A model generated the notes under the pieces. It did not search any database, was not told the DNA's origin, and saw nothing but the letters and a program-made list of their open reading frames with translations. The translations under genes were made by a program, and so were the position numbers. 64,000 bases of DNA from Escherichia coli (GTDB lineage Bacteria > Pseudomonadota > Gammaproteobacteria > Enterobacterales > Enterobacteriaceae), in the NCBI RefSeq assembly GCF_044647545.1, contig NZ_CP172818.1; one strand, given 5' to 3'. Numbering within the stretch: the first letter of the stretch is position 1; each line of letters begins with the position of its first letter. Of this stretch, positions 52,467-53,340 are shown piece by piece.

Positions 52467-53340
52467 TGCTTTTTGTACTAAATAATTCGCATTTTATGTT
52501 TAAAAATTGAGATATTCCTCATTACCTGAAGCTGTTTTTTATTGCTTATACATGATCAAATACTCCTTACATAATTAAGGAGAACAAAATGGTACTTAAA
52601 AAATTGATAGAACATATTTCTATTATCCCCGATTACAGACAAGCCTGGAAAGTGGAACATAAATTATCGGATATTCTACTGTTGACTATTTGTGCCGTTA
52701 TTTCTGGTGCAGAAGGCTGGGAAGATATAGAGGATTTTGGGGAAACACATCTCGATTTTTTGAAGCAATATGGTATTTTGAAAATGTATTCCTTTCACGA
52801 TACCATTGCCAGAGTTGTATCCTGTATCAGTCCTGCAAAATTTCACGAGTGCTTTATTAACTGGATGCGTACTGCCATTCTTCAGATGATAAAAGTTATT
52901 GCAATTGATGGAAAAACGCTCCGGCACTCTTATGACAAGAGTCGCCGCAGGGGAGCGATTCATGTCATTAGTGCGTTCTCAACAATGCACAGTCTTCATC
53001 GGAAGATCAGGAGGATGAGAAATCTAATGAGATTACAGCTATCCCTGAACTTCTTTACATGTTGGACATTAAAGGAAAAATCATCACAACTGATGCGATG
53101 GTTGCCAGAAAGATATTGCAGAGAAGATACAAAAACAGGATATTATTTATTCGCTGAAAATGAAACCAGGGGCGCTAAATAAAGCCTTCGAGAAAAATTT
53201 CCGCTGAAAGAATTAAATAATCCAGAGCATGACATTACGCAATGAGTGAAAAGAGTCACGGCAGAGAAGAAATCCGTCTTCACATTGTTTGCGATGTCCC
53301 TGATGAACTTATTGATTTCACGTTTGAATGGAAAGGAGCA
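52467..53340 (+). pseudogene. ybfD: H-repeat element copy 2, degenerate and 3'-truncated ISAs1-family transposase
   Basis: Same leader and 5' coding sequence as copy 1 but with at least ten small deletions or substitutions causing frameshifts; homology ends near codon 256. Confidence 0.7.

Follow-up and report, generated by a model that had tools for sequence, protein, structure and literature searches.

RESULTS

H-repeats and flanking genes at the ybfA–ybgA site

The window analyzed here, i.e. the whole stretch of 64,000 nucleotides of Escherichia coli DNA, has the gene order gltI-lnt ... kdp-ybfA, followed by an Rhs element and thereafter ybgA-phrB-dtpD ... abrB-ybgO. The Rhs genes are followed by three H-repeat pieces, namely a fragment, a complete copy (copy 1) and a second copy (copy 2). 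The features between the left edge of the Rhs insertion and ybgA, all on the + strand, are as follows.

45375..45439, + strand: Rhs upstream leader at the left edge of the insertion; 6 A, 6 G and 2 T missing (14 bases in all)
45479..51030, + strand: Rhs main gene with a ybfB-like gene and an orphan core fragment; 100% identity with the ST648 Rhs at rpmE–yiiX
51031-51037, + strand: thinned-out junction, reading 'ACA CGC GCC GG' in the window versus the natural 'ACATATCCGCTGAGCCCGG'
51038-51176, + strand: H-repeat fragment, ybfQ-like, matching the ST648 RhsB locus
51177..52468, + strand: H-repeat copy 1 (ISEc1, ISAs1 family; position of K-12 ybfL), complete, 1,292 bp
52469..53336, + strand: H-repeat copy 2, in the place of K-12 ybfD; comprising leader and first 256 codons, lacking 18 bases (15 G, 3 C) from 52775 on and having private substitutions at 52593 and 52609
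53337..53393, + strand: remnant of the H-repeat 3' end and ybfD–ybgA spacer, with 41 of 95 K-12 bases dropped
53442..53950, + strand: ybgA, the intact gene flanking copy 2, identical to ST648

Copy 1 was bounded by terminal inverted repeats of 18 nt (51177-51194 and 52451-52468), and its transposase ORF was intact, encoding 378 aa (51322-52458) with the domains DDE_Tnp_1_assoc and DDE_Tnp_1. It thereby agrees with ISEc1 of the ISAs1 family in both domains, in ORF length, in inverted repeats and in total size. Compared with the first H-repeat of the ST648 vgrG locus it was 99.8-99.9% identical, and clean, having a single substitution against that counterpart. The exact copy 1 protein is frequent among public genomes and uninformative on origin. 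H-repeat paralogs number 4 to 8 per genome.

When copy 1 (51196-52466) was aligned with copy 2 (52467-53345), 859 positions matched and 19 were substituted, and one base was inserted at the far end. Copy 2 was short of about 21 bases, namely 17 G, 2 C and 1 T as well as 2 at the 5' edge, and its first internal base loss was at 52775. As described in the first-pass annotation of this DNA, the two copies have a leader and 5' coding sequence in common, the shared leader measuring 122 bp (52467-52588) and the homology stopping at 53336 (copy 1 position 52088, in codon 256). The alignment also confirmed that copy 2 carries multiple frameshifts and ends near codon 256, its longest ORF being a frame-hopping one of 197 aa (52589-53182), in which a domain search yielded PF13808 alone. 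Copy 2 thus differs from ISEc1 in having only the N-terminal domain in frame, in starting past the right repeat of copy 1 with no left inverted repeat, and in its thinned-out right end. It is neither an ISAs1-type transposase gene with both domains and about 378 aa, as copy 1 is, nor an element of ~1.29 kb with terminal inverted repeats, its size being 868 bp plus a thinned-out tail of 57 bp. The tandem, truncated layout also leaves it without clean flanks at which a target-site duplication could be sought. At the nucleotide level it is clearly H-repeat sequence, with 664 of 682 natural-sequence positions present and every aligned base matching.

Comparison with the K-12 RhsC locus

The Rhs site b0699-b0706 has been listed before, and H-repeats have been annotated as IS elements although their transposition was never seen (PMC3032704). 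The window has the same order and junctions as ybfQ/ybfL/ybfD at K-12 RhsC, i.e. a fragment, then a full-length copy, then a deleted copy, then ybgA, and the seam between copies 1 and 2 is identical to that of K-12. The K-12 ybfD is an ISEc1 copy without a left inverted repeat, having an internal deletion after codon 255 and ~70 bp of 3' end before ybgA. Since the K-12 ybfD–ybgA spacer (L001 9956-10030) shares homology with the final ~70 bp of the H-repeat (window 52401-52469), the natural ybfD is internally deleted and not 3'-truncated. Copy 2 occupies the position of ybfD, directly upstream of ybgA and downstream of a full-length H-repeat, and it has the same deletion endpoint, with 53336 equivalent to K-12 L001 9955 and joined to the H-repeat 3' end.

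Copy 2 departs from K-12 ybfD in its reading frame. Translation of the K-12 gene gave an uninterrupted 253 codons, in agreement with the first-pass annotation, whereas copy 2, without the 18 bases, is frameshifted at multiple places from 52775 on. The K-12 ybfL, conversely, has an internal stop where copy 1 of the window is intact. About 1.4 kb of K-12 RhsC (end of ybfO, ybfC and start of ybfQ) is missing from the window, and no RhsC locus is as close to the H-repeat and Rhs sequences of the window as are ST648 paralogs from other loci.

Copy 2 compared with its natural ST648 paralog

The nearest natural sequence to copy 2 was the second H-repeat of the vgrG/RhsE-type locus of ST648 (NZ_CP008697.1 2380769-2381904), where the annotation gives an ISAs1 family transposase with a frameshift. 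Window positions 52673-53336 were found to be a pure subsequence of that paralog, with 0 substitutions, 0 insertions and 18 omissions, comprising 15 G, 3 C and no A or T. Given 21% G in the segment, the probability that at least 15 of 18 lost bases would be G is 4e-8. Like copy 2, the paralog has a frameshift, in its case a natural one of a single base; unlike copy 2, it is full length, sits at another locus and retains all 18 bases. Since copy 2 matches this paralog at each aligned base, most of the 'substitutions' seen against copy 1, together with the T loss at 53157, are ordinary paralog differences. The earlier description of copy 2 as differing from copy 1 by many small deletions, often of G, and by substitutions hence held for the many G-biased deletions, but not for most of the substitutions or for the lost T.

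Seventeen of the 18 drop-outs fell at positions occupied by the same base in copy 1 and in the natural paralog. The base preceding a lost G did not differ from that preceding all G in the segment, a following G was somewhat commoner (7/15, versus 26/133 for all G), and no sequence motif was found around the lost G among the drop-outs of the copy 2 segment. What we found in copy 2 was not the pattern of a natural pseudogene, i.e. unspecific indels together with substitutions, common to relatives.

Drop-outs in the spacer, at the left edge and at the inner seams

The density of drop-outs in copy 2 increases toward the junction with unique DNA, and the loss then carries on into the spacer. There, the 54 bases at 53339-53392 are a pure subsequence of the 95-base K-12 spacer, the lost bases being 25 T, 6 C, 6 G and 4 A; 25 of 26 T were gone, and 53337-53391 is a T-free stretch. 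The drop-out stops at 53393/53394, exactly where 100% identity to ST648 resumes. At the left edge of the insertion, 45375-45439 likewise follows K-12 562-640 with omissions only, and a further 71 bp that K-12 has (L001 491-561) are missing. In a shuffle control, 0 of 20000 shuffles gave a subsequence of the reference, for the spacer and for the left leader each.

The dropped base thus varied by place, being G in copy 2, T in the spacer, and A and G at the left edge, and we know of no classical error model that fits this shift. Inside the insertion, next to the thinned-out junction at 51031-51037, the H-repeat fragment contains 13 bases at 51161-51173 (AACCAGAATGGAA) that are missing from the fragment at the ST648 RhsB locus. 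This stretch reads like the long K-12 ybfQ end thinned out, and stands in between that form and the short one of the ST648 RhsB locus. With it is formed a 14-nt near-tandem repeat at 51145-51172.

The Rhs insertion as a patchwork

The flanks at 33422-45374 and 53394-62186 had 0 mismatches to NZ_CP008697.1, bar one 4-base omission at 55355, and the genomes matching them are of ST648 type, phylogroup F. In both ST648 genomes inspected, of the 59 closest genomes, the ybfA–ybgA site was empty. The main rhs gene (45480-49664) was 100% identical to the ST648 Rhs located between rpmE and yiiX, not between ybfA and ybgA, and the insertion as a whole drew its sequence from three other ST648 loci (the rpmE–yiiX Rhs, the RhsB locus and the vgrG locus). 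The 8-kb Rhs insertion (45375-53393) is therefore a patchwork, having the layout of K-12 RhsC, the letters of ST648 and all of its seams thinned out. The placement of the entire 8-kb element is suspect; should the genome in truth be ST648-like, ybfA–ybgA may contain no Rhs element at all.

Corruption elsewhere in the window

Similar damage was seen at other places. At 13469-13650 lies an ST648 hypothetical gene (NZ_CP008697.1 1509625-1510062) from which G is dropped first and then progressively more bases, so that 409 bp become 165; the stretch ends in a poly-A run of 49 nt (13588-13636), and the register is regained at 13651. At 3021-5420, between gltI and lnt, a homolog of the ST648 rhomboid-family protease gene is in register with ST648 at 81.7% identity, yet smeared into runs of G, A and T, with 205 of 266 substitutions copying the adjacent base, with a poly-A run of 28 nt at 3051-3078 and with 4906-5144 unalignable. 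The sequence at 3021-5420 is not natural E. coli sequence. Poly-A runs of 28 and 49 nt are not known in E. coli chromosomes.

The omission at 55355 consists of AAGG, missing 7 bases before the phrB stop in comparison with ST648, whereby the ORF grows from 472 to 495 aa. It is located where K-12 and ST648 differ by an intergenic element of 112 bp. In the abrB–ybgO spacer (62182-62186) we found a clean switch, from 100% ST648 upstream to 100% K-12-like sequence (NZ_CP195942.1) downstream; beyond 62186 (ybgO, ybgP, to 64000) ST648 instead carries a GntR/RraA/TRAP-transporter island. Every anomaly fell at segments of variable presence or absence among E. coli strains, and the conserved stretches between anomalies were nearly perfect, one 20-kb stretch, for example, showing a single difference.

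As in K-12, seven tRNAs (Gln, Gln, Met, Gln, Gln, Leu, Met; minus strand) form an array at 12514-13217. The ST648 reference record annotates three tRNAs at this array, which may be a collapse in that record.

Absence of the copy 2 deletions from other genomes

The ybfD–ybgA region was present in 4,926 of 5,426 complete E. coli genomes, and in none of the 5,426 were the copy 2 deletions found. The best match in these genomes to window 52400-53500 was 92.0% identical, the reference spanning 1,158 bases versus 1,101, and the best matches to the insertion junction pieces reached 81.7% and 93.3%. A 40-mer across three of the drop-outs gave 0 matches in a species-representative genome collection and in JGI metagenome contigs, whereas a natural 43-mer used as positive control gave 6. 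Neither the 197-aa ORF of copy 2 nor the extended Phr of 495 aa had an exact record in a collection of 15 billion proteins.

DISCUSSION

The pattern of the drop-outs, the patchwork insertion, the lack of these deletions in public genomes and the similar corruption elsewhere in the window lead us to infer that the frameshifts of copy 2 are very probably an artefact of sequence production, superimposed on the known ybfL/ybfD arrangement, and not biological decay. The text of copy 2 would then reproduce the natural ST648 paralog except for 18 G or C bases that were skipped while the sequence was being produced, the skipping worsening toward the junction with unique DNA and ending upon return to true ST648 sequence. 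As to what could have caused it, our leading guess is that strain-variable segments may have been written without direct read support, possibly by a generative model or by imputation, or else by a neural or consensus caller whose input data were mixed or absent. Untrimmed poor-quality read tails could be an alternative cause.

Three more specific causes were considered and rejected. A Sanger read tail with weak G signals could give both the G-first loss and the poly-A ends, but it fails on the T-specific loss in the spacer and the A and G loss at the left edge, and it also misfits a backbone identical to recent ST648 assemblies. A mixed consensus of two strains is favoured by the switch at 62182-62186, but leaves the homopolymer smearing and the poly-A runs of 28 nt and 49 nt unexplained. 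A reference-guided fill from K-12 was rejected because the Rhs body is ~96% identical to K-12 and because a gene found only in ST648 is present, though corrupted.

The first-pass annotation had offered either a pseudogenised tandem copy or a repeat poorly resolved by assembly, leaning toward the latter. Its lean toward an artefact stands, the indels being non-biological, but a simple mis-resolution between copies 1 and 2 does not, as the damage reaches into sequence that is not repeated. In a classical mis-resolution, reads from copy 1, copy 2 and other paralogs would be blended into a poor consensus confined to the repeat. The tandem arrangement and the number of paralogs per genome would suit such an explanation, as would the matches to paralogs at other loci, which multi-mapped polishing would yield. 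We nonetheless consider it unlikely. In 17 of the 18 drop-outs copy 1 and the natural paralog carry one and the same base, so that blending of paralogs cannot create them; copy 1, moreover, is clean, the worst damage lies in the non-repeated spacer, and like damage occurs in the single-copy segments 3021-5420 and 13469-13650.

The other option, a real tandem H-repeat copy that gathered small deletions after loss of function, is trivially correct in one respect, since what nearly all E. coli naturally have as ybfD is itself an IS remnant with an internal deletion. It is non-functional in most of them, the natural ST648 paralog already has one frameshift, and bacterial pseudogenes are biased toward deletion, which counts for natural decay. 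The extra frameshifts of copy 2 are a different matter, and that they arose by such decay is highly improbable. Comparison with the nearest natural sequence shows 18 deletions, all of G or C, and 0 substitutions; the density rises up to the junction and on into the spacer, with its near-complete loss of T; and no genome of the 5,426 has any of the deletions. The surrounding 20 kb, with 0 substitutions versus ST648, would also have left no time for decay of this kind.

The omissions could also be real if an ST648-like isolate had recently gained an RhsC-type element at ybfA–ybgA by recombination between its own Rhs and H-repeat paralogs, with base-specific single-nucleotide deletions at the seams, a course of events to which we assign only a very slight probability. 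The source genome may be absent from the collections searched, which would count against an artefact. A localised biological process deleting single G, such as translesion synthesis on damaged G or a process linked to the IS or Rhs element, would agree with the strong base specificity and the clustering but is scarcely credible, because the favoured base is not constant over neighbouring stretches (G, then T, then A/G), substitutions do not accompany the deletions, similar corruption elsewhere ends in the long poly-A runs, and the affected sites coincide with the seams of the patchwork insertion.

With an artefact of sequence production being the preferred reading, at least six places in the window should be regarded as untrustworthy, i.e. 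3021-5420, 13469-13650, 45375-45439, 51031-51173, 52775-53393 and 55355, and findings in these segments that are based on frameshifts, odd composition, homopolymers or unusual junctions should be discounted. A reusable test is to ask of any odd stretch whether it can be obtained from a natural homolog by omissions alone, without a single substitution. The underlying object at this site is the long-known, natural ybfL/ybfD H-repeat pair of the RhsC locus, with nothing new in it; the biological importance of the finding is slight, and its main value is as a practical warning.
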